A stretch of DNA of 61,499 bases from a virus (taxonomy: Duplodnaviria > Caudoviricetes): positions 1 through 61,499 of IMG/VR virus record IMGVR_UViG_3300035701_000030; one strand, given 5' to 3'. This document shows, piece after piece, positions 4,609-22,842 of the stretch. Within the stretch, counting starts at the first letter, position 1; every line of letters starts with the position of its first letter. The notes under the pieces are model-generated. The model was given only the letters and a program-made list of their open reading frames with translations. It was not told the DNA's origin and made no database searches. Both the position numbers and the translations under genes were made by a program.

Positions 4609-4895
4609 CAGAGGGGGCTGCCTTTGGGGCAACGTTGGCTATTAATAAATATACAAGAATACCAATTGCCGAAGGTATTGATTCTGCTATGGATCTCCCC
4701 CACACACTAACACAAGCAATTTTATACAGATTAAAAATAAACTCTCTTAATGAGCTACCTAAAGATAAGAAACCATCAAGAAATCTTTGGGATAAGCCCT
4801 ATGAATTGGACGAGTATCTTGACGAAATATGGGATACTAAATCAGAAAAAAAAGGTAAGACTTACGTGGATATAGATTTAGAGGAAGTGGAGTAA
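4605..4895 (+). CDS. Tail assembly chaperone frameshift extension (gpGT-like)
   Basis: -1 frame relative to 3895 ORF, no clear own SD, ends 1 nt before tape measure. Confidence 0.75.
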   Translation, partial: LAEGAAFGATLAINKYTRIPIAEGIDSAMDLPHTLTQAILYRLKINSLNELPKDKKPSRNLWDKPYELDEYLDEIWDTKSEKKGKTYVDIDLEEVE

Positions 4896-4896
4896 G

Positions 4897-7800
4897 GTGG
4901 CAGGAGAATATAGAATTCGCTTTATGGGCGATTTGGGAAACCTATCACAATTTACCTCGGGTATAGTTGGCTCTGCGTCATCTATAAAGAGTGCCTTCAG
5001 AGCTTCGGCTGCTTCTCCAGTTACTAACTTAAAAGTTCCGGGTCTTAATATTAGTAACCTAACTACTACGGTAGACGCTGCTAATAGGGTGTTAATACAG
5101 TCAGGAACAGTATTCCACAGAACGGTGGTAGGGTGGAAAACCGATCTAGCGGCATTAGATGCCGCTACAACAAAATCGGCCCGAGCGGGTGGGGCAGCAG
5201 GGTATGGGGGTGCTTCATTTAGAACGCCTACTGGCCCTGCTGTTATGGGTTCAGGTTACGGCTCCACTAAGGGAGGAAAGCCACCAACAGCCGGGGTATA
5301 CGCTAAAGACCTAAAACCCGTATATGAAACGTTTGCAACAGGCGAATTCAGCCAAATTATGGGGGATTTTGATAAGATTAATGCCGCTACACAGGCTTTG
5401 ATCCCCGCATCCTTGGCATTAGCTGCTATAGACAAGAAAGCAGCGCTAGAATTTTATAAGTACGAGGCTGGACGTATTACTTTAATTAATATGCAAACAG
5501 CCGCTATTAGGGAGCAAACTGTTGCCAAATTAGCCCTTGAAAGAGCTTATAAAATGGGCGGCGGAACAGTCCCTAAATTTAATGCTGCTGGTGTTATGAC
5601 CGCACCCGGAAAATTAATAGCCTCAGATAAAGAAATTGCTGCGATAGCTAAACAACCTGTATATCAGGCAGTACGACAAGCAAATGCTACTATTGTTCCC
5701 CTCGCTGGTGGAGGAACAAAGAGGGTTCTACCAACCGCTGAAGCAATGAGGGGTATGGTACAAGCGGACATGGCGCTTGCTGCTGCTGGTGCTCCCACGG
5801 GGGCGAATCTTGAACTTGCAATTCGTCAAGCTAGAGGAATAGAGCTAATAGAGAAGGATATTGCTGCAAGAAATATTGTTCTTAAAGAGATTGATGCTAA
5901 ACTTACAGCAGCTAATGCTAAGCAGGAAGCCTTTAATAAAAAAGTAGCGACTCAAAGAAAAGCAATAGCTACACAGTATGCTCCAGAATATACCGCTTTA
6001 AATGAGGCTAAAACTACGCCCGGAGTACCTTATCAAATGAAAGCTCTTTTAGAGCGATCTAAATCTCTTAGAAAAGACGTAATGAAGAATCTTGATATTA
6101 CAGCACCTTTCGGAACAACAGATTTTGCAAAGCAGTTTAATGAGAAAGTTTCCTCTGTTCAAGTTTCCAAAGATTTAACAAGAGGTATAACTAACGTATC
6201 TATGGAAGCCCAGGGTGCAGACGGAATCGTTGGTAGAATGACTACTAGTTTGAATCAGCAAGGACAGACTATTGAGAAGTGGTCAGGTAGCCTTAGAAAC
6301 GCTGGAAGTACCTTAAAAATGGTTGCTGTTGATTTTAAGAAGGTTCTTGAATGGACCGTTGCTACAACCTTAGTTTTCGGAGCGTTTGGTGCAGTTATAG
6401 GTAGTATTTCTAAGGTTAATAAGGTAACTAACGACCTTCAAAGATTCCAAATTGTTTCTAAAACAACAGGAGAAGAAACTAAAGCTGCATTTGATGCGGT
6501 TGCAGAAATTGCTTATAAGACAGCAACTCCCCTCATGGAATTAACTGCTGTAATGGATGATATTGCCCTAGCTACTAGAAAGGTAGGACAAACAACTAAA
6601 GAGTGGGCCGAAGATATGAAGTACCTTACAAATGCTGTAGGTATTTTTACTAATATTGCCGGTGTGGATACAGTTAAAGCCACAGATCAGCTAAGTGCCG
6701 CATTTAAACAGCTACAGATTGATCCTGATCAGCTAACTATGATATTGAACAAGGTAACAGCCGTAGCTGGCGGAAATGCACAGGCCACTCAAGATATTAT
6801 TTCTGCTATTGGCACTGTTGCTGAAGCAGCAAAAGCTGCGGGATTTGATATAGATGAGCAGATTGCTGCTGTTCAGGTGCTGTCTCAGGTTACTAATAAA
6901 TCAGCAGCAGATATTGCTACGTCTTTCAAAAACCTATTTGGCTCTCTTAATGCTCCAGCTTCCGTAAAGGTATTAAAGTCTTTTGGAATTGAAGTTAGAG
7001 ATGCTACTGGAAATCTTAGACCCTTCTTAGATGTTTATAAAGAAATTTATGATGCAATTCAACAGGGTGTTATTCCTGAGGGTAGAGTACAGGATATTTT
7101 AAGAGCTATTTCTGGTGGTCCAAGAAGGGCACCAGATGCCGCAGCTATCTTAGGTAATCTTCCTAAAATATTTGAAACTATAGCTAAATCAGCTAATGCT
7201 ACAAATGAAGCTCTTATTGCTAATGCTAAAATATTAGATACAAATACTGCTAAGCTACAACAAATGCGGACTGCTTTTGATACGGCTATAATTAATGCAT
7301 TTACGGAGTCCGTTAATAAATTAGTTGCTGGAGTAACGGATCTAGGAAAAATATTTGCAACAGTTCTTGGTAGTAATGCTAGCTCAAGTGTAGCTAGTTC
7401 CATTATACAATTTGGAATTTTAGTAGGTTCCTTAACTTTAGTTACTAAACTTTTTGGTGGTATGCGTACTGTACTACGCGGATTGGCTACTGATTTAAAG
7501 CTTGTTGGTATACAATCTAAAGCTAACTCATACTTATTTGGAAATGCCACAGCAATAGGAAAAGGCGCGTATAAATCGCCTTTAAATTTAACAAAAACAG
7601 AACGACCGGGCTTCGCTAAGTATGTGCAACCGGGGGGACAGTTTGAGTACTGGCCCCTAGTATCGGGAACTACTCCCCCCATGCCACCCGCCTTTAAAAC
7701 TCCACCACGAGGATTACAGGGCGTAAGTGGGTTATGGCAGGGAAATAGAGCATTTAGAATGGGTTCTGCGGGATTAGGCGGAGCAGCAGCAGGATTAGCT

Positions 7801-10290
7801 TTAGGAGGAGCAGGAGCGCTTACTGGAAATGGTGCATTTTCACAAGTGGGTACAATGATAGGTGCAATGGGCTTAATGTCTATGAATCCTGTAGTAATGG
7901 GTGCAGGGGCGGCAACCCTTGCGGTATCTCAACTATTCCAAATATGGCAAGATGGAATTGAAAAAACAAAACAAAAACAAAAGACTTTACAAGCATCTAT
8001 TTATGATCAAATCAAAGCCTTACAAGAAAATCAGAGAGCCTATGAAACAATAATAGAAATTCAAGAAAATGCTAAGAAGACTATAGATGAGTTAAGTGTT
8101 AAAGCGCTTTTAAATACAGATGAAACAGAGCGTCTTACAGAAGCTCAAAATAACTACGCTACGTCTACTATTGACGCAATGGGTGCTGAAAGATCCCTTT
8201 TGGATTCTAGGGGTAAGTTGTTAGCGCAACTTCCACAGTTAGAAAAATATGCCGATTTAGCATCTAAAGCAATGTCCCTAAATCCAGCAGATTTAAAGAT
8301 GCTTGCTGAAAAATTGGCCCAAGATATATTAATATCTTCTGGAGTATACGTACCTAAACCAAGCCCTATGTATAAGCCCGCTTATGCTGAACCCCAAACC
8401 CTAGACGAAGCGTTACTTGAGCCTAGACGTAAAAAGGAAGCTCCTATTTTTGGTAGGAGTGATAAGGCTGATTTTTATAACTATGATTTAATGCCTACTA
8501 AAGAGGTTATAGAAAAATTACAGACCGGGGGAATAGAGGAAGTTATTAAATTCTTGAAGCTTCCCCACTGGACAACGGGTGGAAAGGGTGTGGAAGTTAC
8601 ACCTGAATTAGCTAATACTATTAGTACTTTATTAAGTCTAACTACAGAGGAAGAAAGAGCTAATATAGAGGGATTCGCAGATGGAGTAAAGATATTTGAA
8701 TCCAGTGTTCTTACGATGCAGGGTGTAATTGATCCCTATAATCAAATGGTTAATAACCTTGCCGGATTTAAAGCGACAACGGAGGCAAATCTGGCATTTG
8801 GTATAGGGGATACTAAAGATAATCAAAATGCGGAGCTTAGACAAAAACTAGGACAAACTTTTATAGAGTATGCTAGAAGAGTGCCAGAAACTGCGGGATA
8901 TATGAGAGGCGAGGGGCGAAGCTATGGATCTAGCGTGGGGCAAAGAGATATCAATGAACTTATGTATGGGGGCAACGGTAAGACTGGCTTCGTAAGTAAA
9001 GGAGAGGTTGCAAACACAGGAGCTATGACAGCAGACGAGGCCAAAATGCTGTTTGGGGTTATTGCGGAGTTAGATCCAGCTTTGGTAAATGCCCAAAAGA
9101 ATACGGCTGAGTATGGGGAAATGGTATATCAGTACTTTAAAAAAGCTGGCTTTGAAATAGATGGCTTACGTGACCCAGCTAGACAATTAGCTGAAGATTT
9201 TGCAACTCTGCGGGAAGAAATTGATGCAAGTGTTATATCAGGAAAACAGGCTTTGTATGATGAATTAGTAACTCTACAGGCACAAAAGCAAGGTGGAGAA
9301 TTTAAAAAGGAGCCACAATTATTTACGGGACAAAAAGAACAAGTAGAGGCCCTTATTACAGCTTATACTGAGCTAGGTGTAGCCTTTAATCAAAATGTTG
9401 CTATTCTTCCCCAACTAAGAGATAGCTTAGGAAGCGTTAAGATACTACAGGGGTTACTTCTTACAGACGTAAATAACCTATTACCCTCCTTATTAGGCTT
9501 AGCAGATAGAATGGGATTAACAGGCAAGGCTGTAGATAAGCTAAAAGACTATATAAAGGCACTTATAGGTGCAGTAACCATACTTAACGCAATGCCCGAT
9601 ACTATAATAAAAATTAGGGTTCAGATGACGACTGCCATAAAAAGCGGGAGTATGTTTGATGTTATAAATGCTGCAAGGGATGCAGCTTCAGCTATTGGTG
9701 CGGCTTCTGCCGCACAAAAGACTCAAGCTTCTGCGTTAGCGGCCATTGAAAAGCTATTTGCTAATGCGGGAGGAACTTCTTTTGGTGCGTCTACGGGAGG
9801 AGGAGGAGGAGGAGGAACAAAGGCCCCTATAGGCTCTATTGATTTACCTAAAGAATGGAAAAATCAAGCAACTCCCGTTAAAGCTTTAGTACAACAAGCT
9901 GTTGAGTGGGCTAAAAAATATCAAGCAGCTATACCGGGGGAAGACAAGGAGCATAAGAAGGACTTAGTTGCTGTAATGATGGGCAATACTAGGGTATTAT
10001 TACAAAGGGGGATTGCAGAAGAGTACCTTAAAAAAGCTATTGATGCTCTAACAGATGAAATGAAAAAAGCAAACGATACAGCAGATATGGTAGGTAGGAT
10101 AAGAATAGGAGCGGGGGACTTTGCAGCTATGGCTAATGTTCCTTTCAATAGTAAGACAGGAATAAGCGTTGGTGGGGAAGGAAATGCAATGGCTGTTAAT
10201 GTAAATATTAACGGTCAAATTCTTACCCCGGCTCAAATGGATCAACTGGCAGATCATATAGCGGCTGCTTTAAGGCCTAAATTAGTGTAA
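4897..10290 (+). CDS. Tape measure protein
   Basis: 1797 aa, Ala-rich helical; TP901-type core (IATSFKNLF..L..FGIEVRDATGNLRPFLDV), hydrophobic segments. Confidence 0.92.
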   Translation: MAGEYRIRFMGDLGNLSQFTSGIVGSASSIKSAFRASAASPVTNLKVPGLNISNLTTTVDAANRVLIQSGTVFHRTVVGWKTDLAALDAATTKSARAGGAAGYGGASFRTPTGPAVMGSGYGSTKGGKPPTAGVYAKDLKPVYETFATGEFSQIMGDFDKINAATQALIPASLALAAIDKKAALEFYKYEAGRITLINMQTAAIREQTVAKLALERAYKMGGGTVPKFNAAGVMTAPGKLIASDKEIAAIAKQPVYQAVRQANATIVPLAGGGTKRVLPTAEAMRGMVQADMALAAAGAPTGANLELAIRQARGIELIEKDIAARNIVLKEIDAKLTAANAKQEAFNKKVATQRKAIATQYAPEYTALNEAKTTPGVPYQMKALLERSKSLRKDVMKNLDITAPFGTTDFAKQFNEKVSSVQVSKDLTRGITNVSMEAQGADGIVGRMTTSLNQQGQTIEKWSGSLRNAGSTLKMVAVDFKKVLEWTVATTLVFGAFGAVIGSISKVNKVTNDLQRFQIVSKTTGEETKAAFDAVAEIAYKTATPLMELTAVMDDIALATRKVGQTTKEWAEDMKYLTNAVGIFTNIAGVDTVKATDQLSAAFKQLQIDPDQLTMILNKVTAVAGGNAQATQDIISAIGTVAEAAKAAGFDIDEQIAAVQVLSQVTNKSAADIATSFKNLFGSLNAPASVKVLKSFGIEVRDATGNLRPFLDVYKEIYDAIQQGVIPEGRVQDILRAISGGPRRAPDAAAILGNLPKIFETIAKSANATNEALIANAKILDTNTAKLQQMRTAFDTAIINAFTESVNKLVAGVTDLGKIFATVLGSNASSSVASSIIQFGILVGSLTLVTKLFGGMRTVLRGLATDLKLVGIQSKANSYLFGNATAIGKGAYKSPLNLTKTERPGFAKYVQPGGQFEYWPLVSGTTPPMPPAFKTPPRGLQGVSGLWQGNRAFRMGSAGLGGAAAGLALGGAGALTGNGAFSQVGTMIGAMGLMSMNPVVMGAGAATLAVSQLFQIWQDGIEKTKQKQKTLQASIYDQIKALQENQRAYETIIEIQENAKKTIDELSVKALLNTDETERLTEAQNNYATSTIDAMGAERSLLDSRGKLLAQLPQLEKYADLASKAMSLNPADLKMLAEKLAQDILISSGVYVPKPSPMYKPAYAEPQTLDEALLEPRRKKEAPIFGRSDKADFYNYDLMPTKEVIEKLQTGGIEEVIKFLKLPHWTTGGKGVEVTPELANTISTLLSLTTEEERANIEGFADGVKIFESSVLTMQGVIDPYNQMVNNLAGFKATTEANLAFGIGDTKDNQNAELRQKLGQTFIEYARRVPETAGYMRGEGRSYGSSVGQRDINELMYGGNGKTGFVSKGEVANTGAMTADEAKMLFGVIAELDPALVNAQKNTAEYGEMVYQYFKKAGFEIDGLRDPARQLAEDFATLREEIDASVISGKQALYDELVTLQAQKQGGEFKKEPQLFTGQKEQVEALITAYTELGVAFNQNVAILPQLRDSLGSVKILQGLLLTDVNNLLPSLLGLADRMGLTGKAVDKLKDYIKALIGAVTILNAMPDTIIKIRVQMTTAIKSGSMFDVINAARDAASAIGAASAAQKTQASALAAIEKLFANAGGTSFGASTGGGGGGGTKAPIGSIDLPKEWKNQATPVKALVQQAVEWAKKYQAAIPGEDKEHKKDLVAVMMGNTRVLLQRGIAEEYLKKAIDALTDEMKKANDTADMVGRIRIGAGDFAAMANVPFNSKTGISVGGEGNAMAVNVNINGQILTPAQMDQLADHIAAALRPKLV
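9796..9816 (+). repeat. (GGA)7 microsatellite encoding poly-Gly
   Basis: ggaggaggaggaggaggagga in tape measure C-terminal region. Confidence 0.9.
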
Positions 10291-10305: not shown

Positions 10306-11031
10306 ATGGGTTTAGGACCAACACCACAATATTTAGCTCAATATAATAACTACGTTTTACCGGGCTATGTTCAAAGCGAAGATATGGAGTCCACTATTAA
10401 TATTGCCTCCCACTATGGCGCTTATCTAGATGGGTCAGATTCAGAGTATGTAGGGCTATCTAATAAATCCCTTAACCTATCCCTTAAGGTATGGGAACAA
10501 GATTATTTATCTTGTAAACAGCAAATAGAACTAGCAGCTACTATGATTAGAAGTTCCAAGATATTTACTAACCTGTATGTTCAATACACTGATCGTCATT
10601 ATGTAGCTTTAGCTAAATCTATTAAAATGTCCAAGTCTGTTCCATCTTCGGTGCGTACATTAGATTATAGTGTAGAGTTTGAATGCAAGCCGTGGCTTGT
10701 TGGGGAGACACTTCATTCAATTAGCTCAGATACCAATGAGGTAGGTCGCACAATAGCCGATGGTGGCTGGACACCTACGGTTGTAACCCTAACAGGCAAT
10801 AGCGTAAGTGGAATTGTAGACTGGGACGGCCAATCTACGGGCAATATTGTTACCACAGGGGTTACTAACATGGTTATAGATACCGAAGCGTTTACCGCTA
10901 CAATGGACGCAGTTAATAGAAATGATCTTATTACTACAAAAGATTATAGGCTATACGTTGGCCCCGGAAGAACAATCTTTACGGTAGATGGCTCTGCCAC
11001 AATTCAATATTACGATAGATATTATATATAG
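10306..11031 (+). CDS. Distal tail protein (Dit)
   Basis: 241 aa immediately after tape measure; VEFECKPW and C-terminal YVGPGRT..IQYYDRY typical of siphophage Dit. Confidence 0.75.
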   Translation: MGLGPTPQYLAQYNNYVLPGYVQSEDMESTINIASHYGAYLDGSDSEYVGLSNKSLNLSLKVWEQDYLSCKQQIELAATMIRSSKIFTNLYVQYTDRHYVALAKSIKMSKSVPSSVRTLDYSVEFECKPWLVGETLHSISSDTNEVGRTIADGGWTPTVVTLTGNSVSGIVDWDGQSTGNIVTTGVTNMVIDTEAFTATMDAVNRNDLITTKDYRLYVGPGRTIFTVDGSATIQYYDRYYI

Positions 11032-11077
11032 ACTAATAAGATAGTCACTCAAATACAATTGAGGTAGGTGGGCAGGA

Positions 11078-14000
11078 ATGGAATACCAAGAGGTAGGACA
11101 GGCAGAAGTACAGATAGTACTTACTGATATCCAAGTCTATGCCCAAGCAGATTCCCAAATATTAACCATTAATTACGCTGTAGGTAATTCTGTTACCCAA
11201 ATTCTTGCTACATATAGTGAGAGTGGACAAGCGCTTGCTATAATACAAATTCCCTCACTACCAGTTTATTTCTATGATTCATTTACTAGGACCACTACCG
11301 CTCCACCGGCTAATGTGGGTACTGCCGATACTGGACAGACTTGGTACTGGAACGACTACGATGAAAATTTAGGCTTCGCCCTATCCACCTTACATGTAGA
11401 AAGTGGAGCTTTGGTATTACCAAATGAAGGACCCGCCCATTCAAATTATGATGCTATAAATGGTGCTCCCTCAATTGAAGAGGGAGAATTTCTAATAGAT
11501 TTTTGGGTACCAGCAGCAGGAGATATTTATCTTGATTTTAGATGGTTTGACAAAAATTGGTATATAGTAGTATTTGATACTTCTGAAACAACCTTTACTC
11601 TTGCGGGAGATATAGGGGAAACAGTATCAATAACAGGTAGGGATGCGTGGTATAGGCTCCGAGTAATAGTAGAAGGCAGTATTTCAAGTACTAAGGCACA
11701 TATATGGAAAATAGGGGAAACTGAGCCTATTACTTGGACCCAAATACAATCTACATGGAAATATATAAAATCTAATTTAGATGGTATTAGCAACTATGGG
11801 GTACCTTATAGAAACTTACTTCCAATATTTGATATCTATAATACTCCTCTTAATGAAGCGGCTAAGTTTGATAATATAACAGTTTCGGGTTATGGATATA
11901 CAGTATATAATCAAGGGTTTGGTCTTGCACAGACACAAATTCTTACTACATATAATATATATTCACAGGCTGACTCATGGACAGTATATCGTCAGGAGAC
12001 AGGAGAATATATTTGGCCGCAATTTGGACAGGCATATGCTCATATACTTACTATAGATGTACAGGCATATAGTCAAGCATTGGCTATGATAGCTCTTCAA
12101 AGATATACTACAACATTTTCAGATACATTCAGCAGAGTTACCACCCCTAATCCATTTAATTTAGGTACTTCGGATAGCGGCCATACATGGAATTGGTCTA
12201 ATTGGGCAAGTTCTACTCCTCCTACTGCTATTTATACCGATGGTTCTAACCTTATCTTTACAAGTGGTGGAAATAGTGCTTATACTATTTACCCTTCTGG
12301 CCCTTCCCCATCTTCTGGAAGTAATTATGTAGATCTATTATATGATATATGGATAACTAATTCTTATGATAGTAATCACTATTTTTATTGGTTTGAAAAA
12401 GATTGGTGGTTCTATATATATGATAACAGCGGCTCTACATTTGGGATATGGAGTTACGGTGGTTCTGGTGGCTATGCAGTTATTCGTAATTCGTTCTATA
12501 GAGTCAGAGCAATATATGATCCTACTGGTCCCGGTGGAATCTATTTAAAGGCCCATATGTGGAAAGTAGGAGATGCTGAACCCGGTACTTGGACAACTCT
12601 ACAGGTTCAGAAAGTTTATAATTACAATTCACCGGGAAATACTTATTATAATCAATCCCCTATTTTATATTGGGGTAAGCCATCTAGTGAAGCAGGAAAA
12701 CTTGATAATATTGCTTATAATAGTGTTTATAATACTGTATATAATCAAGGTCAAGCACAAGCACAAACAAATATTCTAACCACTTATCAACAGTACGGAC
12801 AAGCGCATGTAACTCTTAACCAGTCTCAATATACCGGACAGGCTTTAGCAAGCATCCTTTCAGTATATCAAAATTATTCTCAAGCACAAGCAAATATTCG
12901 TAAATCTGCTGGATACGGACAAGCAAGGGCATTACTTAATCGACACTGGGCTTTTGCCATCGCCACATTCTATAGCTTTAACCCTACTCCGGGGGCTATA
13001 AATAAATGGAATAACCATGCATATGCTCAAGCCCATATAGTAAAAAGAAATATAAGGGCTTATGGCTTAACAAGTGTACTTAATGTTTATAGAAATCCTG
13101 TTTCTGGTGCATATATATGGCCAAAATTTGCACAAGCAAATACAAAAATTATCTTAACCGGCATACAAAAATATGGCCAAGCACAGGCTTGGATGAATCT
13201 TATCATACGGCCAGCGCAAGCAATTGCTCAAATTATAAACACAGATGATGGTTATAGACGCGCTGTTCTAGCAGACCTCCCAATGGTCTATTATCCACTA
13301 GATGATGGGGCACCGGCTGGAACAAATCTAGTTAGATTCCCCGTTGGAGGGTCTGCAAGTTATACGGGCTATAATCAATATAGTGCTTCGTATGCCTATG
13401 CTAAAGCGGCAGACGGTATTCGTTCAGATGGCTGGGCTGCTTCTGGATATGCCTCGGAGCCACCAGAAGTCCGTCGTTGGTGGCAAGTAGATTGGACTGT
13501 TCCACAAACTATAAAAACAGTACGATTAATTAATCGGCCCAGTTATACATTCGGTTATGGGCGAATAATATTTAGTGACGGTACCTATTATTCAGTTACA
13601 TTTCCTAATTCAGGAAACGAGTCCCAGCTTTATTTCGTAGATGTTACAAATGTAACATCTATGCGTATAATAAGTGACGGAGGAGGCAATTCTAATCCCG
13701 GTTTCTCTGAAGTAGAAGCCTATATTGATATTGAAGTAGATACGCTTCATTCTATAGTGGGCAGAAGAAACGCTAGTTGGTGGTACAGCACAGTACCGCC
13801 ATCCTTCTCCCAAACACCCGCAATTCTGTCTGGAACATCCATCTATTTTGGCAATAATAAAGCCCTAGATGCCGGACAAAATATGTGGAGTGCCGATGCT
13901 ACTACTACTTTACCCCTAGCTATTCCCGGTCAGCACGGCCAAGAAAATAATATGAATGTAATCTCCCCTACATGGTGGGGCAAAGCGGGGGATGTTGTTA

Positions 14001-17000
14001 CTATCCATATAACGACTCCACCAACGTCTGCTGATATAGGTATATATCAAGTTGGTGGGGAAAACCAATGGTGGAGTAAGAACGGGTATCAGACCACCGG
14101 TGGTTTGGTTGGAACTGCTGGAAGAGATGTTCCATTTACATTAACTTCTACAGGCCCCCACTTTGTATACCTATGGACCTATAATGCAGGATATACGGGT
14201 ACAGGTACCGTTACTATTACAGGAAGCCCGATAGCCCCTGAGTCTACTATTCCAATGGCCGCAGGATCAGCTATAACAGTTGAAACTTGGGTCAAGTGGG
14301 ATGGTACTACCGACTACCGCATGATATTAGGATTCGACAATTATAACTTTTCCATTTTTGCCGGTAAATTAGGATTTGAGGTTCCTACTAATCAGTATTG
14401 GTCAACAGCAAGTGCTGTTTTAATTGCGGGAGTTTGGTATCATGTTGCTGCTGTTATGTATACGGAGCAACCAGTTGGTACTGCTAATAAGATATATGTT
14501 AATGGGGTACTCCAAAGTTTATCCGGCCAAAATCCAACAGGTTATTTTCAAGAATACTTTAATATAGGTGGTTGGAGTGCGAGTAATAGCTATAACGTAT
14601 ACTCTACTCTAGATGAATATGCTGTATTTAATTATGAATTAACAGCAGAACAAATTCTTGCTCATTATCAAGCAAGAATAATTATGTGGCACGCTCAAGC
14701 ACAGGCTAGAATTATTGGTTTTGGATATCCTGTATATGCTCAAGCTCTAGCAATGATAAAGGGTTTGGAGTTCGCTCAAGCCCAAGCGCATATCTTTGGC
14801 TCATATCCTCGATATGGGCAAGCATTAGGTCTGATAACCAGAGATGGTGAAGGCTTAGTACGGATGATTTGGACAGGTGAGTATACCCCTTATCCTGAAA
14901 ATATTATTGCTTGGGGCATAGAAGACCAGTCGGGTCAGATATATTATGATAATGGCGGAACTCCGGTACCTGATTATCCCGGCACTAATGCTGGTGCTGC
15001 ATGGACAACCAGATTTACTGCTGATGCTACTGGTACTTGGTCATTTAGAACAGTATCGGATGATAACTCCGAAGTAACTATTGATTCTGTTGTTATAGTA
15101 GCAAACTATAGTGATCAATTTACTACGGTTGGTACGGGACACGGTGATTGGGACCGATTTGGACCTGTTGAATTAACCTTGGGCCAAGAGTATAACCTAC
15201 ACGTTAGATGGACTCAAGGTGGAGGACCGTACACAATCCATGTCTATTATAAGCGGCCAGCAGATTCGACATGGAACTTATTATTAGATAATAAGCCCCC
15301 GTGGTTGCCCGTAAGTAAGATAAGAGTTTGGGCACAAGCGCAAGCGCAGATTTTACGTCCACCTAATATTAGAGATTATGCCCAAGCACAGGCTCGTATA
15401 TTAGCGTATAAAGTTAAGGGATATGGACAGGCGCAATCTAGATTACTAGCATTTAATCAAAATGTATGGGGACAAGCGTTAGCTTTCGTAGGGCATTTCC
15501 AGTCAGGTAACGCCCAAGCCCGTATATTAGCGTTTAATATAAATAAGTACGGCCAATCCCAAGCTAATATTCTTAAATCAGCGGGATATGGCCAAGCACA
15601 AGCCAAGTTAAATGCCTTTAATGTTAACAGGTATGCTATAGCGCACGCTAAATTAAGAGCATTTAATGTTAACGGCTTTGGACAGGCGCGAGTAACTGTT
15701 CTGCGCTCTGCATCGGGATTAACACAGGCGCGAATTAAGCAGACCTATCCTCTATTCTATCTTAATAACTATGCCTTATCCTCATTAGGAGCAACGGCTA
15801 CAGCACTTCCTGCTGAGCTTACTATACCTAATCCTAACGATTCTAATTTTGGCGGGCCAATAAATACTATAGATGGTAACTCTCTATCATTATGGGAAAG
15901 TTTAGTAAACGTTGCACCCGAAAATGACGATGAAAGAGTTAAATTAATAATCGATCTAGGACAGCATAGGGTAATAACGGGCTATTATATATTACCAGAT
16001 AAATATAACTCTACAGTAAGTCTACAATGGCATGGAAGCCCCGGAAACACTATTCCCGTTACCCAGTGGGTTACTATTGTACCTAATATATATCTTCCAG
16101 TTAATATTTCTACTCCGTTAAGTGGAGATAATGCTGTTAGAGGATTTATAGCCCCTAGCAATCAAAGATGGTGGCGATTAATAGTAACCAATGGCGGGGA
16201 CGGAAATAGGATATCATTGGCTACATTTGGTTTAGGCGTAGGGCTAATACAGAGTGGAACATTTGCTCAGGCAATGGCAATGTTTGGGCACTATGCAGTA
16301 GCACAGGCAGCATATTATATCTCCCCAGCATTCGATCAGAACGTTTATGGACAGGCGCAAGCGGATATAGTTCAGACCTACCAGATATACGGACAATCGG
16401 AAGCGTGGTTAATACCTCCTACCCAATGGTCACAGGCTCTAGCACAAATCATACAGACTTACGCCCTTGATTCTAACGCTATGGCATGGATAATACCCCC
16501 TACTCAGTGGAGCCAAGCCCTTGCTACTATTAAAGCATATGATATAGAGGCTTATGGATTCGCTAAAGCACATCTTATAGGGCACTATGCTAGATTTGGA
16601 AATGCTAGAACTTATGTCTCCAAAACACAAGGTTATGCTCATGTTGCTGTAAGTGTGTTTAAGAGGGGTAACATCGCAAGGGGCGGGGCTATAGCATACA
16701 TAGGGCACTTCCAATTCGCACAGGCAGGGGCCTTTATCTTATGGCTTGCGGCATACTCTAACGCCCAAGCGCAAATTAAAACAGATTATATCAAATCTGC
16801 TCAAGCTATAGCAGTTATACAAAGATTTGATAAGTGGGGCCTAGCAAAAGTCCATATATTACAGGATTATAGGGTTTATTCTCAGTCCATTGTACTTCTA
16901 AATCGAACTTGGGGCATAGGATTAGCAAATTCTCAAATTCATAGAACATACTATAGGTGTGCTAGTACTAGAACATGGATAAAAGATATCTATCGTGGCT

Positions 17001-17941
17001 ATGCTCAGACAGAGGCGTGGATAACGCTTAGAAACCTTAAGATTTATAGTCAAGCAAGAACGTTTGTTGTAAAGACAACAATTAGGGGGGCACAGGCACA
17101 AGTACAGATAGGCGGGTTCCAATATAGCCAAGCACAAGCGCGAATACTGGCTTATAACGTCCCTAAAGTAGCTCAATCGGCTGGTTATATACTTGCTAAT
17201 ATAAATATTGTGCCCCCAATCCCTACGAGCGGGATGGCTAGATATCTTGTTCAGTATAATGGCCATCTAGTACCGGGATATGCTCAGAGTGAGTCCTATG
17301 ATTCGATAGCCAATACCGCTTCGCATTATACAGCCTATTTTGATAGTTCCTTAAGCGAATATATAGGGCTAGAAAATAAAATTATTAGTCTTACCATGAA
17401 GGTATGGGAGCCAACCTATCTTGAATGTAAACTAAAAGTGCAGGAAGCTGCAACAATATTAAGGTCAGTTAGAAAGCAATTTGCTAGATTATATATACAA
17501 CGCACAGATAGGTATTATTTAGCTATGCCAAAGAGCCTAAAGATGGCCAAGGATGTTTCTTCAAGCGGAAAGTTTATTGATTATGATATGGAATTTGAGG
17601 CTAAACCTTGGATAATAGAGGATAGAATAAACACTATTTCTGGCACAGGGATAATAGATACAGGAGCTAGATTTGGCGGCTGGACCCCAACTACTATTCT
17701 TGTTACTGGAACAGACATTACAATAAGCGGACTTACGGAGCAGGGGCAAGATACGGGAACTATCTCAATAAGTGGGTATGTAGAAAACTTTGTTGTAGAT
17801 ACAGAGGACTTTACATCAGGGAACAACGCAGTAATAACTCCAAAGAATTATGGCATATATGTAGGGCCGGGAAAGACATACTTCACTATATCAGGGGCTA
17901 CTAGTTGCATAATTACTTATCAAAATAGGTGGTATTTATAG
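11078..17941 (+). CDS. Giant tail/adsorption protein: AQA repeats, duplicated beta domain, LamG, two F5/8-like, PA14-like domains, C-terminal Dit paralogue
   Basis: LamG motifs (YYPLDD, TVETWVK, WYHVAAV, IYVNG, LDEYAVFNYELT), F5/8 (WWQVDW..I.TVRL, FSEVEAY; LIIDLG..RWWRL), PA14 (WSFRTVSDD, WTQGGG); last ~235 aa align with 10306 ORF. Confidence 0.8.
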   Translation: MEYQEVGQAEVQIVLTDIQVYAQADSQILTINYAVGNSVTQILATYSESGQALAIIQIPSLPVYFYDSFTRTTTAPPANVGTADTGQTWYWNDYDENLGFALSTLHVESGALVLPNEGPAHSNYDAINGAPSIEEGEFLIDFWVPAAGDIYLDFRWFDKNWYIVVFDTSETTFTLAGDIGETVSITGRDAWYRLRVIVEGSISSTKAHIWKIGETEPITWTQIQSTWKYIKSNLDGISNYGVPYRNLLPIFDIYNTPLNEAAKFDNITVSGYGYTVYNQGFGLAQTQILTTYNIYSQADSWTVYRQETGEYIWPQFGQAYAHILTIDVQAYSQALAMIALQRYTTTFSDTFSRVTTPNPFNLGTSDSGHTWNWSNWASSTPPTAIYTDGSNLIFTSGGNSAYTIYPSGPSPSSGSNYVDLLYDIWITNSYDSNHYFYWFEKDWWFYIYDNSGSTFGIWSYGGSGGYAVIRNSFYRVRAIYDPTGPGGIYLKAHMWKVGDAEPGTWTTLQVQKVYNYNSPGNTYYNQSPILYWGKPSSEAGKLDNIAYNSVYNTVYNQGQAQAQTNILTTYQQYGQAHVTLNQSQYTGQALASILSVYQNYSQAQANIRKSAGYGQARALLNRHWAFAIATFYSFNPTPGAINKWNNHAYAQAHIVKRNIRAYGLTSVLNVYRNPVSGAYIWPKFAQANTKIILTGIQKYGQAQAWMNLIIRPAQAIAQIINTDDGYRRAVLADLPMVYYPLDDGAPAGTNLVRFPVGGSASYTGYNQYSASYAYAKAADGIRSDGWAASGYASEPPEVRRWWQVDWTVPQTIKTVRLINRPSYTFGYGRIIFSDGTYYSVTFPNSGNESQLYFVDVTNVTSMRIISDGGGNSNPGFSEVEAYIDIEVDTLHSIVGRRNASWWYSTVPPSFSQTPAILSGTSIYFGNNKALDAGQNMWSADATTTLPLAIPGQHGQENNMNVISPTWWGKAGDVVTIHITTPPTSADIGIYQVGGENQWWSKNGYQTTGGLVGTAGRDVPFTLTSTGPHFVYLWTYNAGYTGTGTVTITGSPIAPESTIPMAAGSAITVETWVKWDGTTDYRMILGFDNYNFSIFAGKLGFEVPTNQYWSTASAVLIAGVWYHVAAVMYTEQPVGTANKIYVNGVLQSLSGQNPTGYFQEYFNIGGWSASNSYNVYSTLDEYAVFNYELTAEQILAHYQARIIMWHAQAQARIIGFGYPVYAQALAMIKGLEFAQAQAHIFGSYPRYGQALGLITRDGEGLVRMIWTGEYTPYPENIIAWGIEDQSGQIYYDNGGTPVPDYPGTNAGAAWTTRFTADATGTWSFRTVSDDNSEVTIDSVVIVANYSDQFTTVGTGHGDWDRFGPVELTLGQEYNLHVRWTQGGGPYTIHVYYKRPADSTWNLLLDNKPPWLPVSKIRVWAQAQAQILRPPNIRDYAQAQARILAYKVKGYGQAQSRLLAFNQNVWGQALAFVGHFQSGNAQARILAFNINKYGQSQANILKSAGYGQAQAKLNAFNVNRYAIAHAKLRAFNVNGFGQARVTVLRSASGLTQARIKQTYPLFYLNNYALSSLGATATALPAELTIPNPNDSNFGGPINTIDGNSLSLWESLVNVAPENDDERVKLIIDLGQHRVITGYYILPDKYNSTVSLQWHGSPGNTIPVTQWVTIVPNIYLPVNISTPLSGDNAVRGFIAPSNQRWWRLIVTNGGDGNRISLATFGLGVGLIQSGTFAQAMAMFGHYAVAQAAYYISPAFDQNVYGQAQADIVQTYQIYGQSEAWLIPPTQWSQALAQIIQTYALDSNAMAWIIPPTQWSQALATIKAYDIEAYGFAKAHLIGHYARFGNARTYVSKTQGYAHVAVSVFKRGNIARGGAIAYIGHFQFAQAGAFILWLAAYSNAQAQIKTDYIKSAQAIAVIQRFDKWGLAKVHILQDYRVYSQSIVLLNRTWGIGLANSQIHRTYYRCASTRTWIKDIYRGYAQTEAWITLRNLKIYSQARTFVVKTTIRGAQAQVQIGGFQYSQAQARILAYNVPKVAQSAGYILANINIVPPIPTSGMARYLVQYNGHLVPGYAQSESYDSIANTASHYTAYFDSSLSEYIGLENKIISLTMKVWEPTYLECKLKVQEAATILRSVRKQFARLYIQRTDRYYLAMPKSLKMAKDVSSSGKFIDYDMEFEAKPWIIEDRINTISGTGIIDTGARFGGWTPTTILVTGTDITISGLTEQGQDTGTISISGYVENFVVDTEDFTSGNNAVITPKNYGIYVGPGKTYFTISGATSCIITYQNRWYL

Positions 17942-20671
17942 ATGTTACAAGTGAGAATTAGCACTCCAGAATTCTCTGACGGGGTAAACTTTGTTGATCC
18001 CATAGTACTAGAAAAAGCAACTGATATATCCTTGCGCAAAACAGTTAGTTCCAGCGAGGAAGGCATTCAGTTTAAAGTTCCTATCAACGATATTAAAACT
18101 CCTTTTATAACCTATCTTAGATGGTGGGAATGTTGGGATACTGAAACAAATACTAGATTAAATTATGGGCCTATAGAAAGCATTAATAGGTCAGGGGGAG
18201 ATTCCAAATCTGTTTCGGGGCCGGGAAGATCCGCCTTGTTTAGAGATTATTATAAGAGTATTCAAACATTTTATTATCCAATTAACGTATTCTTAGATGA
18301 TCTTCGCTATGAAAACCTATCTTCCGAACCTAGAACAACTGCTCTTATTAATCAGGATACCTCTTCTGCCTATTATGGCGTAAGTAAGCGTAGCAAGGAT
18401 TATGTTATAGATGAACAAACGGGGTATGTTGCCGTGGGAAGAGATACACCCTCTAGGGGTGTTATTAAAACATCCCAATTTTGGTCGGGAATAGGCAGAG
18501 CAGATCATATTATAGTTGATCTTGGAGAAAAGTATAAAATATCAAAATCTAGGATAATTCTTCCGTGGTGGGGAGGATCTACGCAGACTTATAGTAGAAC
18601 ATATGATTGGAGTTGGCAGTATTCAAACGATAATGAGGGCTATACTTCTATATATACATCGCCAATACCTAACTACAGCAAAACTACTAATGCAGGTGGT
18701 ATAGGCCAAACTATTTATACAGGAGAGAGTGGCTTTGAGGATAGCCAGCATACAGCCACTAGCGGTGCGATAGATGCTAGGTATTGGAAATTAGATATAA
18801 GCAATACTCATGCTTGGTACGGAAATTTCTTTGTTGCAGGAACCCTTACTGATGAGTGGGCGTGGGAGTGCGGTGGTAGTAACACGTTTAAAGGTGATTC
18901 TAAGCCATCTCCCGCTACTACGAGCGGGTCCATTATACCTACTACGGATATCAACCCAAATAGCGATTGTTATGCTTCTGTTATTGAGCTAAGTCTTATG
19001 AAAAAGATAGTTGGGATGGATACTATTACTGACTTAGCCTATCACCAAATTCAAGGTGATAATAAACAAATAACTTATTGGCACATGCCAACAGAAGCGG
19101 AAATGATAGGGGGAAAAAAGTTTGAACCGGGAACGTTCTTTAGAAAGATAAAAGTATCTGGTTCCCCCGGAAAGATTAAGGATGAGTATAACACTATTAT
19201 TGCTGATGGCAACAATAGTGGTAATTGGATAAAAACCCCTGCTTATTGTAGGTTGGTTTTATTTGAGAGTGCCGCTAGGGTATTAGAAGTAGATACATGG
19301 CCCGGTAAAATGGATGCCTTTTCTTATGGTGGTAGCTATTCCTATAGTGAAATGGCTAATGACTATGCTATTTTAAATTTTAGGGGAATATCAATAAAGT
19401 GGTTTGCTACTATACCATCTGGTAAAACTCCCGGTACAGTATCAATAGAGCTTAGAAGTAAAACAGGAACAGACTCTTGGAGTGATTGGGATTTTCTAGA
19501 AGACAGTCTAACCCTGCCCTCTGATGTATCAGGGACAAAGGTTTGGGAGATAACTGTAGAATCAGAGATTTTAGTAGATGAAACCTCTTATCAACTAAGA
19601 ATAACTAATCTGGATGGTGGATTTGTATCAATAGACGCGTTTGCGGGGTATTGGTCAGCTACCATGTCGGATTATAATGAGGATCACGCTCGTATATCGT
19701 TTAGAATCCCCGCTGAGATTAATCAGATATTTGATTCTAAATTTACTAATGGTAGTGCCTATAAATTTATCGAGCCCGGAGAATATACTAAAGGCGGGTT
19801 GGGATTTATGGGAGATAGGGTTATAATATATTCCAGAAAAGGTGTTGATTATGGCCTAATTGATCTAGCTATAATAGGTAAAACTTCCGTAGGAGAAGCC
19901 GTAGTTATACACATACCGGGGGGTAATCCAAACGGGACTCTTACAGTTGATTTGGATAATCCTACGGATGTACCACAGTTTATTGTTTTTGATAGTAATG
20001 ATTATTTTGAAAATGGTCTTCCGTGGGATTGGTATAGTGCTATTGTTTATAAGCCAGAAGATCCTGATCCCATGTGGGTTGATGGTTGGTCTGTTCACGA
20101 AACCAACGGCCTTAGTGTTAAGTTTATGAATACTAATTACTTGGATATAATAAAATCTACATCTGAGGCTCTTCAAATGGAGTGGGATGTTACTGAGCTA
20201 GGTCTAAAAATTGTTCCGAGATTAGGTGAGGATACAGAAATTATATTTGCTGAGGGTCGAGGTACAACCATTGATATCGATGATACAGAAGACATTGGTG
20301 AAGTAGCTACTATGCTACTTGCTACTGGAGCCGATATAGATGGACTTCCCATGTCTACAATAGTAGAGGATAAAAAGACAAGAGCAATAATGGGTAGAAC
20401 CATTCAAAGAACTTATGACTCTCTTAGGAATACAGCAGACTATTTTACACTAATCGGAGCTTCTAGAACAGAGTTAATTAGGAGAAGAGAGCCACAGAAA
20501 AGAGTAACTGTTAAGCGTGCAACTGATATGCCTATACATGAGGGAGATAGTTTTATTGTTAAGAAGGCAGAGTTAGAATTAAGAGTTCGTGCAAATAGCA
20601 TCACTAGAACCCAATCAAATGGTGGTACAGAATGGTCTGTGGAGTGTGTAAAATGGCCAGCGATAGCTTAA
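17942..20671 (+). CDS. Tal-like baseplate hub / minor tail protein with inserted carbohydrate-binding-like domains
   Basis: Follows Dit; hub-like ends (LDIIK..SEALQMEWDV..LG..T.I.FAEG); internal IIVDLG..ARYWKL and two galactose-binding-like repeats (FRG.SIKW..SIDAF; FMGDRVIIY..KG.DYG..VDGW). Confidence 0.7.
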   Translation: MLQVRISTPEFSDGVNFVDPIVLEKATDISLRKTVSSSEEGIQFKVPINDIKTPFITYLRWWECWDTETNTRLNYGPIESINRSGGDSKSVSGPGRSALFRDYYKSIQTFYYPINVFLDDLRYENLSSEPRTTALINQDTSSAYYGVSKRSKDYVIDEQTGYVAVGRDTPSRGVIKTSQFWSGIGRADHIIVDLGEKYKISKSRIILPWWGGSTQTYSRTYDWSWQYSNDNEGYTSIYTSPIPNYSKTTNAGGIGQTIYTGESGFEDSQHTATSGAIDARYWKLDISNTHAWYGNFFVAGTLTDEWAWECGGSNTFKGDSKPSPATTSGSIIPTTDINPNSDCYASVIELSLMKKIVGMDTITDLAYHQIQGDNKQITYWHMPTEAEMIGGKKFEPGTFFRKIKVSGSPGKIKDEYNTIIADGNNSGNWIKTPAYCRLVLFESAARVLEVDTWPGKMDAFSYGGSYSYSEMANDYAILNFRGISIKWFATIPSGKTPGTVSIELRSKTGTDSWSDWDFLEDSLTLPSDVSGTKVWEITVESEILVDETSYQLRITNLDGGFVSIDAFAGYWSATMSDYNEDHARISFRIPAEINQIFDSKFTNGSAYKFIEPGEYTKGGLGFMGDRVIIYSRKGVDYGLIDLAIIGKTSVGEAVVIHIPGGNPNGTLTVDLDNPTDVPQFIVFDSNDYFENGLPWDWYSAIVYKPEDPDPMWVDGWSVHETNGLSVKFMNTNYLDIIKSTSEALQMEWDVTELGLKIVPRLGEDTEIIFAEGRGTTIDIDDTEDIGEVATMLLATGADIDGLPMSTIVEDKKTRAIMGRTIQRTYDSLRNTADYFTLIGASRTELIRRREPQKRVTVKRATDMPIHEGDSFIVKKAELELRVRANSITRTQSNGGTEWSVECVKWPAIA

Positions 20672-20898: not shown

Positions 20899-21583
20899 AG
20901 TAAATCAACTAGGCAAAACATTACAGAAAACTAGAAATGAAGTAAATCAAAATGCCCGACGTGGGGCAGAAAATTTTCCAACTCCTGAGATTTCGGTTAA
21001 AGATTTCAATAGATTATTTACGTATAAAAAAACGTTTGAAGCGCACTCAGATGCCTTAGTCCGTCTTAACGTCGGGTTAAAAGAAATTACCACGCCTTGT
21101 TCTGTTAATCCCCCTATAATTAATAAGTGGTGTAGGTTGAAATTTAATGATGCCGGAATACCGGGCACTATGCTTGAAAGTAACGGTGAATTTATTCTTA
21201 ATGGTGACGGTACGATAACTGTGCCGGATAGCGGCTGCTACTCAATAACACTTACCTCTGCTGCTTGGGGGCTATCTTATACTGCGGGGCTGTCTCAATT
21301 TGCTTCTTTCTATCATAACTATAAGGTAGTAAAGTCTTATACCAAGTATGCTACAGGGTTTATTTCTATTTTAGGCCCATTAATATGGGTAATTCCATCT
21401 ATTACCCACCTATATCAAGTTATAGAAGCTAAGGCAGGAGATACATTAAGTGCATCCCTATCAGAGAATATAGGTGGGTTATGTTCAGGAACTTGGTGGG
21501 GATGTTTACTACATAACGCATTCTTCGGGCTTTCTAATACTTGGATTAAAATTGATTTAATAGCTCTAGCGGAGAGTGTATAA
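20891..21583 (+). CDS. Tail-tip / receptor-binding protein (paralogue 2; C1q/TNF-like head)
   Basis: DGTITVPDSGCYSI..AKAGDTL pattern of trimeric jelly-roll heads. Confidence 0.55.
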   Translation: MDKVNQLGKTLQKTRNEVNQNARRGAENFPTPEISVKDFNRLFTYKKTFEAHSDALVRLNVGLKEITTPCSVNPPIINKWCRLKFNDAGIPGTMLESNGEFILNGDGTITVPDSGCYSITLTSAAWGLSYTAGLSQFASFYHNYKVVKSYTKYATGFISILGPLIWVIPSITHLYQVIEAKAGDTLSASLSENIGGLCSGTWWGCLLHNAFFGLSNTWIKIDLIALAESV

Positions 21584-22842
21584 TGAGAGGTTTACGTAAA
21601 ATAGGGGAATCCCTACAAAAAGATGCTACCGAAACTGCTCATAATACACGCAGAATTGCCGCTAATTTGCCTTTAATCGAGAGAAAGTTAGACATAGTAT
21701 CAGGCGATACTAATTATAAGTTAGAGTTTCCTATAACAGAAAGAAGTCACGCTGTTAGTTTAAACATACAGATAAAGCCAGATAATTGCTGTGATTGTTT
21801 ACCGGGGGCAGAGCCAGCTAGGAGATACATGACGGGATATGCCGACTACTTCTGGAATGAGCAACTTCAAATTATACATGATCCTAGTGGCCATCCTGAA
21901 TTAGACTCTTATCCGCCACACCAACAGGAAAGTGGAGTGGACTATCGAGCAAGATACCATGATCCCCTAGATACAGAGGGAAGTATTACAAACATATGGT
22001 TTGCTTGGGAAAACTATCCTTGGTTCTTCCCAACAGTTGAAAATAACTGGAACTATGGACAATTTCTACCCATGCTTGATGGGGGAATAAGGGTTCCTGT
22101 TAATGGCGTATACACCATGATATTTAGAAACAGGGCAGGAGGAGGTACAACAGATAGTAGCCAAATCGTAGCCTCTATAAAGCGCCTACCTAATGGGGAA
22201 GATACATTTGATCCTACTAAGTGGGAAACTATCTCTAGGAAAATATACTCTACTGCTAGGGAAAATATTTGCACATATATTCCTCTAAGTTGGGCATTAG
22301 GGTGGGGATGGAATCCTGATCCTATAGATATTATTACAGTAGGTGGGGGAGAGTACGCTAAATGTTGCGCCTCTTATGGGCGAAATATAAACTTTGGCCC
22401 AACAGTTATTGAGCGCATAGGGGGACTTTACATAGAAGTTTATGCCTATTGCGTACCACTTAATGAGGGCGATCTTATAGGCGGCTGGCTAAAAGCTACT
22501 GATGTAAATAGTTGGAAACCTAGTGAGTCCAACGGAGCAGAGTCTAGTACTACAATGATTGATTTAATCGGATTAGGTTTTGGAGCATTAACGGGATTAA
22601 TAACCCACGATAATACCGGGCAACCCTTAGAGGGAGTTACAGTAGTTGCTAATAATGGATCAACATCGTTTGAGACACTTACGAATGATGAGGGTAGGTA
22701 TACCTTTTATGATTTAACTCCTGATTTAACTTATACAGTTACTATATCTAAGAATGGGTACTTTACTCAGTCCAAAACTATTAAAATAGTATTTAATGTA
22801 TTAGTGGAGTTAGATTTTATAATATTACACGTACCACAGTAG
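21583..22842 (+). CDS. Tail-tip protein (paralogue 3) with C-terminal carboxypeptidase-regulatory-like domain
   Basis: IRVPVNGVY..LNEGDLI head; C-terminal TGQPLEGVTV..TNDEGRYTFYDL..YTVTISKNGY. Confidence 0.6.
   Translation: MRGLRKIGESLQKDATETAHNTRRIAANLPLIERKLDIVSGDTNYKLEFPITERSHAVSLNIQIKPDNCCDCLPGAEPARRYMTGYADYFWNEQLQIIHDPSGHPELDSYPPHQQESGVDYRARYHDPLDTEGSITNIWFAWENYPWFFPTVENNWNYGQFLPMLDGGIRVPVNGVYTMIFRNRAGGGTTDSSQIVASIKRLPNGEDTFDPTKWETISRKIYSTARENICTYIPLSWALGWGWNPDPIDIITVGGGEYAKCCASYGRNINFGPTVIERIGGLYIEVYAYCVPLNEGDLIGGWLKATDVNSWKPSESNGAESSTTMIDLIGLGFGALTGLITHDNTGQPLEGVTVVANNGSTSFETLTNDEGRYTFYDLTPDLTYTVTISKNGYFTQSKTIKIVFNVLVELDFIILHVPQ

Follow-up and report, generated by a model that had tools for sequence, protein, structure and literature searches.

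Distal tail proteins (Dits) are a conserved platform for the host-recognition gear of long-tailed phages. Here we describe a pair of predicted Dit genes, Dit1 and Dit2, in the IMG/VR virus record IMGVR_UViG_3300035701_000030 (Duplodnaviria; Caudoviricetes), the second of which encodes a Dit domain fused to a giant N-terminal arm. The stretch that was analysed, referred to below as the window, is the complete record of 61,499 bases, which carries a completeness rating of ~51%. All tail genes and protein features described below lie on the + strand. The tape measure gene (4897-10290, 1797 amino acids (aa); Pfam PhageMin_Tail, E 2e-18; tape-measure PHROGs, best E 1e-20) is directly followed by Dit1 (10306-11031), a bare distal tail protein of 241 aa with a belt domain at residues ~1-130 and a galectin-like domain at ~131-241. 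The next gene, Dit2 (11078-17941), is a single open frame for a fusion protein of 2287 aa, composed of the N-terminal arm and a C-terminal Dit domain. The Dit2 domain, residues 2048-2287 by the envelope of the hidden Markov model (HMM) match, occupies 17219-17941 together with the stop codon. Arm and domain are joined by a proline-rich linker (17180-17236), which includes an ATG at 17234 and is predicted with low confidence (predicted local distance difference test, pLDDT, <50 at model residues 316-330).

The two Dit copies are related over their whole length. BLASTP aligns residues 8-241 of Dit1 with residues 2055-2287 of the Dit2 protein at 115/240 identical positions (48%, E 2e-67), the next best segment shared by the two proteins has an E of 1.7, and a search of the record with Dit1 recovered the same two places. 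Only small gaps (13 of 240 positions) interrupt the collinearity of Dit1 and the Dit2 domain, and all extra sequence is found N-terminal of the domain. The original prediction for this locus, made from the DNA alone, had claimed an end-to-end alignment between the 241-aa Dit and the C-terminal ~235 aa of the large protein. This is borne out at 48% identity over the last 233 residues, and the motifs listed in that prediction are present in the BLASTP alignment. Among PDB sequences, a Dit profile of 44 family members reached no better E than 0.91.

Structure prediction assigns both copies to the Dit fold. An AlphaFold2 (AF2) model of Dit1, built on the 44-member family alignment, reached a mean pLDDT of 85.9, and a second model, covering residues 1725-2287 of the Dit2 protein and built on 20 sequences, reached 72.1. 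The models were scanned with Foldseek against the PDB and with VIA-align (VIA) over 48,161 chains. In Foldseek the SPP1 Dit (2x8k, E 4e-10) was the top match of Dit1, followed by the Dits of monocin, NF5, TP901-1, 80alpha, p2 and Douge, with Dit E values from 4e-10 to 2e-6. VIA gave the SPP1 Dit (Z 14.9 over 211 residues, root-mean-square deviation (rmsd) 4.4), the TP901-1 Dit (Z 14.6) and, further down, those of monocin, 80alpha, Douge, p2 and Bxb1, so that seven solved Dits were matched over their full length at Z 9.7-14.9. Hub, tube and Hcp proteins match the Dit1 model over the first 130 residues (the belt domain) only. The Dit2 part of the second model matches the SPP1 Dit equally over 211 residues (VIA Z 15.0; Foldseek E 9e-10), and among predicted viral structures (BFVD) 13 of the first 25 matches carry the name 'Distal tail protein'. 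With belt and galectin-like domains both matching solved Dits in the two programs, the fold proposed earlier for the two copies holds in the models, and at fold level Dit1 and the Dit2 domain match distal tail proteins.

Conservation of the gene pair and the Dit2 junction

Nine relatives from viral contigs were compared with the window, giving 10 loci, 8 of which extend far enough downstream to be judged; in the other two the contig ends within the large open reading frame (ORF). All eight have a Dit of 241-256 aa right behind the tape measure gene and a large ORF whose product carries a Dit domain at, or close to, the C-terminus. These large ORFs are 1000, 1335, 1361, 1420, 1445, 1533, 2287 (window) and 3047 aa long. 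In 7/8 loci the next gene encodes 1014-1078 aa if full-length (909 aa in the window) or is cut by the contig end, and in the eighth (L012) the contig stops 268 aa into the next ORF. The same two-gene architecture, which the original prediction suggested looking for in other phages, is therefore carried by 8/8 judgeable loci. A search for the Dit2 domain itself in viral contigs found none.

The fusion is also common beyond these loci. Among 1.84 billion cluster representatives, a profile search matched 152 proteins, and the 150 of these that were listed were sorted by an HMM script with simple rules that left a few borderline rows misplaced. Among those listed, 76 are long proteins (347-3747 aa) with a full Dit domain at the extreme C-terminus, 4 have an internal domain, 17 are stand-alone and 53 are partial, including several long proteins cut by contig ends. 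About 270 family members were examined and all were unnamed or 'hypothetical', and annotation pipelines thus miss these proteins today.

Two features of the pair vary between the loci. The slot between the small Dit and the giant ORF (11031-11078 in the window) can hold ORFs of 276-574 aa; there are none in the window and L012, one in L004, L005, L006, L007, L010 and L011, two in L003 and three in L009. Those named L003a, L004x and L007x are interrelated, the others are unrelated, and none was matched in the window. As in the window, no ORF separates the 241-aa Dit of L012 from the giant ORF (3047 aa; L012:10774-19917). The match of this giant ORF to the Dit profile is confined to the belt half (profile positions 3-134, at residues 2772-2914); the final 133 residues differ, the galectin half having seemingly been swapped. 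The same belt-half-only pattern is seen in several database representatives (among them P0220 and P0225), which implies that the galectin half of Dit2 is replaceable.

A quick maximum-likelihood tree was made from 66 hand-picked rows. Thirty of these were stand-alone Dits: 6 belong to the window and loci, 5 are stand-alone cluster representatives and 19 were spread across the 119 stand-alone hits whose length was suitable. Another 30 were fused copies, 4 of them taken from the window and loci and 26 from among the 76 fused representatives, and 6 were distant stand-alone proteins. All 30 fused copies fall on one side of a single branch (Shimodaira-Hasegawa approximate likelihood ratio test, SH-aLRT, 84), and the fused group together with 3 stand-alone sister sequences has a support of 96. 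This single fused group indicates that the duplication is old. The copies of one genome do not pair in the tree, so that gene conversion and a recent tandem duplication are both rejected. P0160, P0174 and P0206, three stand-alone Dits with lengths of 253-257 aa, group with the fused copies and not with Dit1, and may be arm-less Dit2 proteins of other phages; P0160 was sought in viral contigs and metagenomes, and P0174 in metagenomes, and neither was found there.

The two families also differ in how strongly they are constrained. When 119 stand-alone domains were compared with 70 fused ones, the stand-alone family was more conserved throughout, above all at residues 1-10 (0.78 vs 0.38) and also at 31-40, 61-70 and 111-120. 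Conserved positions common to both families number 52, of which 27 lie in the belt (residues 1-130); eight are conserved in the stand-alone family only (M1, P5, N32, W63, E64, V116, T161 and W173) and none in the fused family only. Because Dit1 is present in every locus, is the more conserved copy and is the sole keeper of the conserved N-terminal residues, the two copies appear to occupy non-equivalent places.

The original prediction had allowed for an internal start at 17234, and for an assembly join or stop upstream of it. Were either the case, the virus would have two bare Dits and a separate fibre, with a free Dit2 made from the ATG or with a fusion created by assembly or gene calling. 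This in-frame ATG is codon 2053 of the Dit2 protein, three residues ahead of the conserved 'YL.QYN' start of the domain, and the clustering of P0160, P0174 and P0206 with the fused copies would be in keeping with arm-less Dit2 proteins existing elsewhere. The 25 bases upstream of 17234, however, hold no GGAGG-like Shine-Dalgarno motif, which most of the 20 listed gene starts have, and a methionine at the equivalent position is found in 1/17 fused homologues with a located junction (P0172). In the other fused homologues the junction is a variable Pro/Gly-rich linker. The frame is moreover unbroken in 7 related loci, at no more than 40-50% identity, and in the 76 cluster representatives. In one run that is a possible source of the record (X1), a contig spans 16200-18200 with 0 differences, and contigs of a second possible source (X2) and of a run not flagged as source (X3) span 16684-18200 with 0 differences and no gaps. 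On these grounds we reject both the internal start and the assembly artefact, and an unreal fusion is very improbable.

The arm of the Dit2 protein

The arm comprises the first ~2040 residues of the Dit2 protein (~226 kDa). Six repeat blocks made of 13-15-residue units with the core 'Y-[GAS]-Q-A-x-A-x-I', found by motif and HMM scans, alternate with globular modules. From the N-terminus, block 1 (residues 6-58; 11093-11251) leads into the globular module A1 (residues 56-285; 11243-11932), and block 2 (residues 281-340; 11918-12097) into a second module, A2 (residues 337-561; 12086-12760), which is followed by block 3 (residues 558-723; 12749-13246). A1 and A2, which lie near the arm tip, are paralogs of each other (32% identity, E 4e-30) with no Pfam match, and they may represent a new binding domain.

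The modules that follow are largely of lectin type. A DUF7402/discoidin-like (F5/8 type C) module at residues 767-882 (13376-13723) matches PF24135 with an E of 7e-8 for the whole protein and 2e-9 for the piece. It is followed by a Laminin_G_3 (concanavalin A-like lectin) module at residues ~1060-1193 (14255-14656; PF13385, E 7e-15), repeat block 4 (residues 1204-1243; 14687-14806) and a PA14 module at residues ~1287-1394 (14936-15259; PF07691, E 6e-7 for the whole protein, 1e-8 for the piece). Block 5 (residues 1417-1555; 15326-15742) is the most regular of the repeat blocks. Behind it lies a further globular module (residues ~1560-1725; 15755-16252) with a weak discoidin-like match that falls under the family cut-off (F5_F8_type_C, E 0.047), and then block 6 (residues 1729-2027; 16262-17158), a predicted beta-solenoid rod adjoining the Dit domain. 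The Dit fold is thus the C-terminal end of a huge multi-lectin protein, as had been proposed, so that the distal tip of the arm would be its N-terminus.

The same features recur in other long members of the family. The strict repeat motif occurs 4-28 times in every listed representative of at least 800 aa, and is absent (0 matches) from stand-alone Dits. Lectin-type Pfam families were found at E ≤1e-5 in 17/24 long homologues; Laminin_G_3 is present in 16, in up to 6 stretches, and the remaining 7 had no hit. Judged from these sequences, the arms are mosaic and hypervariable and the Dit socket is constant.

In the AF2 model, block 6 is predicted as ~22 consecutive beta strands, one per unit, at a pLDDT of mostly 60-82. 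Its best VIA match is the curli protein CsgA of Pontibacter korlensis (8c50; Z 24.2 over 269 residues, rmsd 7.9), followed by generic beta-solenoids at Z ≤15.9. This points, with moderate strength, to the repeat blocks being curli-like two-sheet beta-solenoid rods. Assuming two strands to each coil, the rods would measure 8-12 nm in total for the 34-52 units recognised. The arm is probably a single chain, since in the model the rods stack within one molecule, and the arm showed no trimerisation element. Within block 6, at 16391-16711, contigs of X2 and X3 fall into short pieces, and X3 has variant letters at 16495 and 16498; these breaks suggest strain microdiversity or assembly trouble in the repeats and not at the Dit junction.

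Neighbouring tail genes and the virus

The gene behind Dit2 (17942-20671) encodes a protein of 909 aa that is probably the Tal or tail hub with a large insertion, and 7 relatives have an orthologue of it in the corresponding position. The hub identity is a lead that comes from its structural neighbours in the ESM Atlas, which are Sipho_Gp37, Prophage_tail and YqbQ clusters (template modelling (TM) score by target 0.71-0.81 in 7/10 rows and 0.36-0.59 in 3/10; low-confidence Atlas model, pLDDT 0.54). The neighbour alignments span residue 1 to ~909, which suggests the large insertion. For the protein itself there was no Pfam, NCBIfam or PDB sequence match, its profile reached a best E of 0.57 against the PDB, and Pfam on 6 Tal-like orthologues gave a weak discoidin match only. 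ORFs of 235 aa and then 419 aa lie downstream of this gene. For the 419-aa protein (21583-22842), a possible further adhesin, the searches gave a CarboxypepD_reg beta-sandwich domain (E 5e-13) and, weakly, a model of an anammox S-layer glycoprotein. Just past the tail genes is a GT4-type glycosyltransferase (23508-24698; PHROG 2170, E 2e-45).

Five ORFs precede the tape measure gene. Those of 653 aa (24-1985) and 154 aa (1988-2452) have no hit in any family library. A 396-aa protein (2581-3771) is a possible tail tube protein; this too is a lead, and comes from ESM Atlas feature neighbours that include clusters with Phage_tube_2 or YomU_Tube in 25-35% of their members. It has no family match, and a PDB sequence search of the 396-aa and 653-aa proteins was empty. 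The last two ORFs encode 237 aa (3895-4608) and 86 aa (4635-4895). An NCBIfam search of 8 tail proteins gave nothing relevant.

Elsewhere in the record, two neighbouring paralogous deoxynucleoside monophosphate kinases lie at 32452-33553, and at ~38000 the guanine-cytosine skew changes sign and the coding strand changes from + to -, marking a point at which gene modules diverge. The contigs that carry relatives reach 120 kb among the fetched loci and 128 kb in the protein-cluster table. The runs containing the stretch are labelled as sediment metagenomes, and no RNA runs are listed among them. Dit1 had no match in 50,697 GenBank phage records, and in GTDB genomes a single 37-residue match at chance level, in a metagenome-assembled genome. 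The closest DnaB matches are 33-35% identical and come from phages of Bacillota; they are too weak for a host call and were not used.

Possible builds of the tail tip and comparison with known Dits

In phage NF5 the N-arm of the Dit contacts the tube protein and binds the receptor-binding trimer, and the N-arms of the NF5, monocin, TP901-1 and Bxb1 Dits extend towards the capsid (PMC12917162, in the portion of the text available), which places the Dit N-terminus outside the ring. We propose that the tail tip described here would be built from two old, non-redundant Dit paralogs. Dit1 would be a plain ring subunit, and the Dit2 domain would be a ring subunit that also serves as the socket plugging the rest of its protein into the tail tip. 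The N-arm of Dit2 would be replaced by a flexible Pro/Gly linker leading into the ~226-kDa arm, in which the six repeat blocks would keep at least six globular modules apart, several being of lectin type (discoidin/DUF7402, concanavalin A-like and PA14). Extending from the tail tip, the arms would bind glycans on the host surface for a first, reversible adsorption, and they would evolve by module shuffling as the Dit socket stays constant. We infer glycan binding by the lectin modules from analogy with the sugar-binding module of the OE33PA Dit, for which binding to host cells has been shown experimentally (bioRxiv 10.64898/2026.05.20.726473, as far as the accessible text goes).

Our overall reading is that these are widespread, undescribed 'N-extended' Dits, in which a giant multi-lectin arm, a single chain spaced by curli-like rods, has a ring subunit as its C-terminal socket. 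This subunit would be accompanied by an obligatory bare paralog in a two-Dit core that may be stacked or mixed. Our judgement on this reading as a whole is evenly balanced. As for the layout of the core, we tentatively prefer two stacked hexameric rings between tube and hub, giving six arms and with the ring order left open, although our confidence in this falls a little below even. The stacked hexamers are favoured by the differing constraints on the two families and by the precedent of a second ring in p2.

Other layouts would use the same two proteins differently. Dit1 and Dit2 might alternate in one hexamer (3+3) that matches a threefold hub and carries three arms, each paralog having specialised after the duplication for one of the two non-equivalent positions offered by a trimeric hub. 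We consider such a mixed ring possible and rank it nearly as likely as the stacked one. An alternating hetero-hexamer of Dit-like (Hcp-like) sugar-binding paralogs has been predicted for the ceduoviruses c2 and bIL67 (PMC12474359, from the part of the article available), a Tal subunit of OE33PA engages two Dit subunits via different domains (bioRxiv 10.64898/2026.05.20.726473, same portion), and a solved Hcp2-Hcp3 heterohexamer is among the fold matches of Dit1 (9vnd, Z 7.0). Both paralogs are also kept in every judgeable locus, with the 52 shared conserved positions. A mixed ring would, however, give both paralogs the same partners, yet the stand-alone family is clearly the more conserved, and the N-terminal residues, which touch the tube in NF5, are conserved in Dit1 only. 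These differences in constraint are not decisive, as the faster change of Dit2 may stem from recombination with the variable arm.

It is also conceivable, though rather unlikely, that Dit2 is no regular channel subunit, and is either present in sub-stoichiometric amounts, giving one or a few arms, or anchored peripherally, on the outside of the tube or of the Dit1 ring. A load of six 226-kDa arms would be heavy for one ring, and both the faster evolution of Dit2 and its replaceable galectin half in some members would be easier to understand on such terms. Against this, Dit2 always retains the belt half, from which the rings of solved Dits are made, and 27 of the 52 positions conserved in both families lie there. 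The peripheral use of a complete Dit fold is not known to us from elsewhere, a point at which none of the literature searches was aimed, and this counts further against a peripheral anchor.

Several points weigh against the reading of a two-Dit core with N-extended arms, and some against parts of it. Dit1 and the C-terminus of the Dit2 protein have no Pfam match at E ≤0.1, no PHROG match at E ≤0.01 and no NCBIfam match. Ring formation by either copy is deduced from fold and gene position only, and the data here do not tell a stacked layout from a mixed ring. The belt-only members, with their replaceable galectin half, argue against Dit2 binding the hub through that half, the way in which the NF5 Dit binds. 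The curli likeness of the rods comes from one aligner and a model of middling confidence; CsgA was not among the Foldseek rows for the repeat region, and Pfam found no curlin repeat in the Dit2 protein at E ≤0.1. The single-chain nature of the arm is drawn from a monomer prediction, and the identity of the 909-aa protein as Tal or hub is a lead only. Judged by size, the ORFs of 653 aa and 154 aa might also be a sheath and tube pair, so that a contractile tail is conceivable. Finally, GenBank phages and GTDB genomes gave no host call, as none held a relative of Dit1.

Two uses of the Dit platform are known, namely holding separate receptor-binding proteins and carrying sugar-binding modules as loops of the outer domain. 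If our proposal is right, a third use would be the fusion of a whole adhesin to the Dit N-terminus with a second, plain Dit beside it. The primary adsorption organ would then be made from the ring protein itself, with a polarity opposite to that of N-anchored fibres and without trimerisation. It would follow that a host-binding arm can consist of one chain held at its C-terminus, that a curli-like beta-solenoid serves as a rigid spacer, and that nature has provided a test of how a six-fold ring tolerates two kinds of subunit. The combination of a constant 'socket' with a hypervariable 'cargo' could also help to recognise adsorption genes in uncultured phages.

The original prediction considered this architecture undescribed. 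Among the papers listed by a full-text literature search, no phage paper dealt with fusion to the Dit N-terminus, with a C-terminal Dit or with Dit paralogs; a Dit fusion was mentioned only in an engineering paper on another subject, and the phrase 'Dit N-terminal' occurred only in papers on p2 and TP901-1, where it concerns the ring of N-terminal domains. The claim stands for the fusion of an arm to the N-terminus, and falls for a second Dit ring, which is reported for p2 (PMC7472080), and for a mixed ring of paralogs, which is predicted for ceduoviruses (PMC12474359), to the extent that the available parts of these two papers describe them.

Classical Dits (SPP1 gp19.1, TP901-1, NF5 gp16, 80alpha and monocin) share the belt and galectin-like fold of the proteins described here (Z 12-15, 203-214 residues), and have the same size as Dit1 and the same place after the tape measure gene. 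Their sequence identity to Dit1 is only ~10%, without a Pfam or PHROG match. They are encoded by one gene, whereas here there are two paralogs, one of which has its N-arm replaced by an arm of 2040 residues. Known Dits hold receptor-binding proteins non-covalently on the N-arm (PMC12917162, in the text available), whereas here the arm is fused.

Evolved Dits, such as those of OE33PA, skunaviruses and Deep-Purple, likewise combine a Dit with sugar-binding modules on flexible extensions and have a role in host binding. In these the extension is inserted inside the galectin domain (residues 167-516 of 659 in OE33PA; bioRxiv 10.64898/2026.05.20.726473, accessible text). Dit2 has no sugar-binding module inside its galectin domain, the feature by which evolved Dits are recognised. 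Its extension instead precedes the Dit domain, runs to 2040 residues and combines rods with many modules, and the virus retains a bare Dit as well.

The arm repeats are predicted as strand-turn stacks that resemble the two-sheet beta-solenoid of the curli protein CsgA (8c50). Identity to CsgA is 8% and no sequence relationship was detected; the units here have 13-15 residues per strand and an Ala-rich face, and would form a spacer inside a phage protein, not a secreted amyloid.

Phage p2 has two Dit rings of different conformations in one baseplate (PMC7472080, in the part available). Both of its rings are the product of one gene, whereas here, if the stacked model is right, they would be formed by two diverged paralogs (48% identity). 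The adjacent pairs of the ceduoviruses c2 and bIL67 (L15/L16 and ORF35/ORF36) are paralogous ring-formers with sugar-binding decorations that are predicted to share a Dit-like ring; their Hcp-like ring domain stands at the N-terminus, and the decorations are modest-sized domains in the middle of the protein (PMC12474359, again from the accessible portion). Here, in contrast, the ring domain is a complete Dit that ends a giant protein, and the partner protein bears no decoration. The literature thus already covers evolved Dits, a second Dit ring and rings of Dit-like paralogs, and the new element is a giant rod-and-lectin arm fused N-terminally to a complete Dit, with an obligatory bare paralog.

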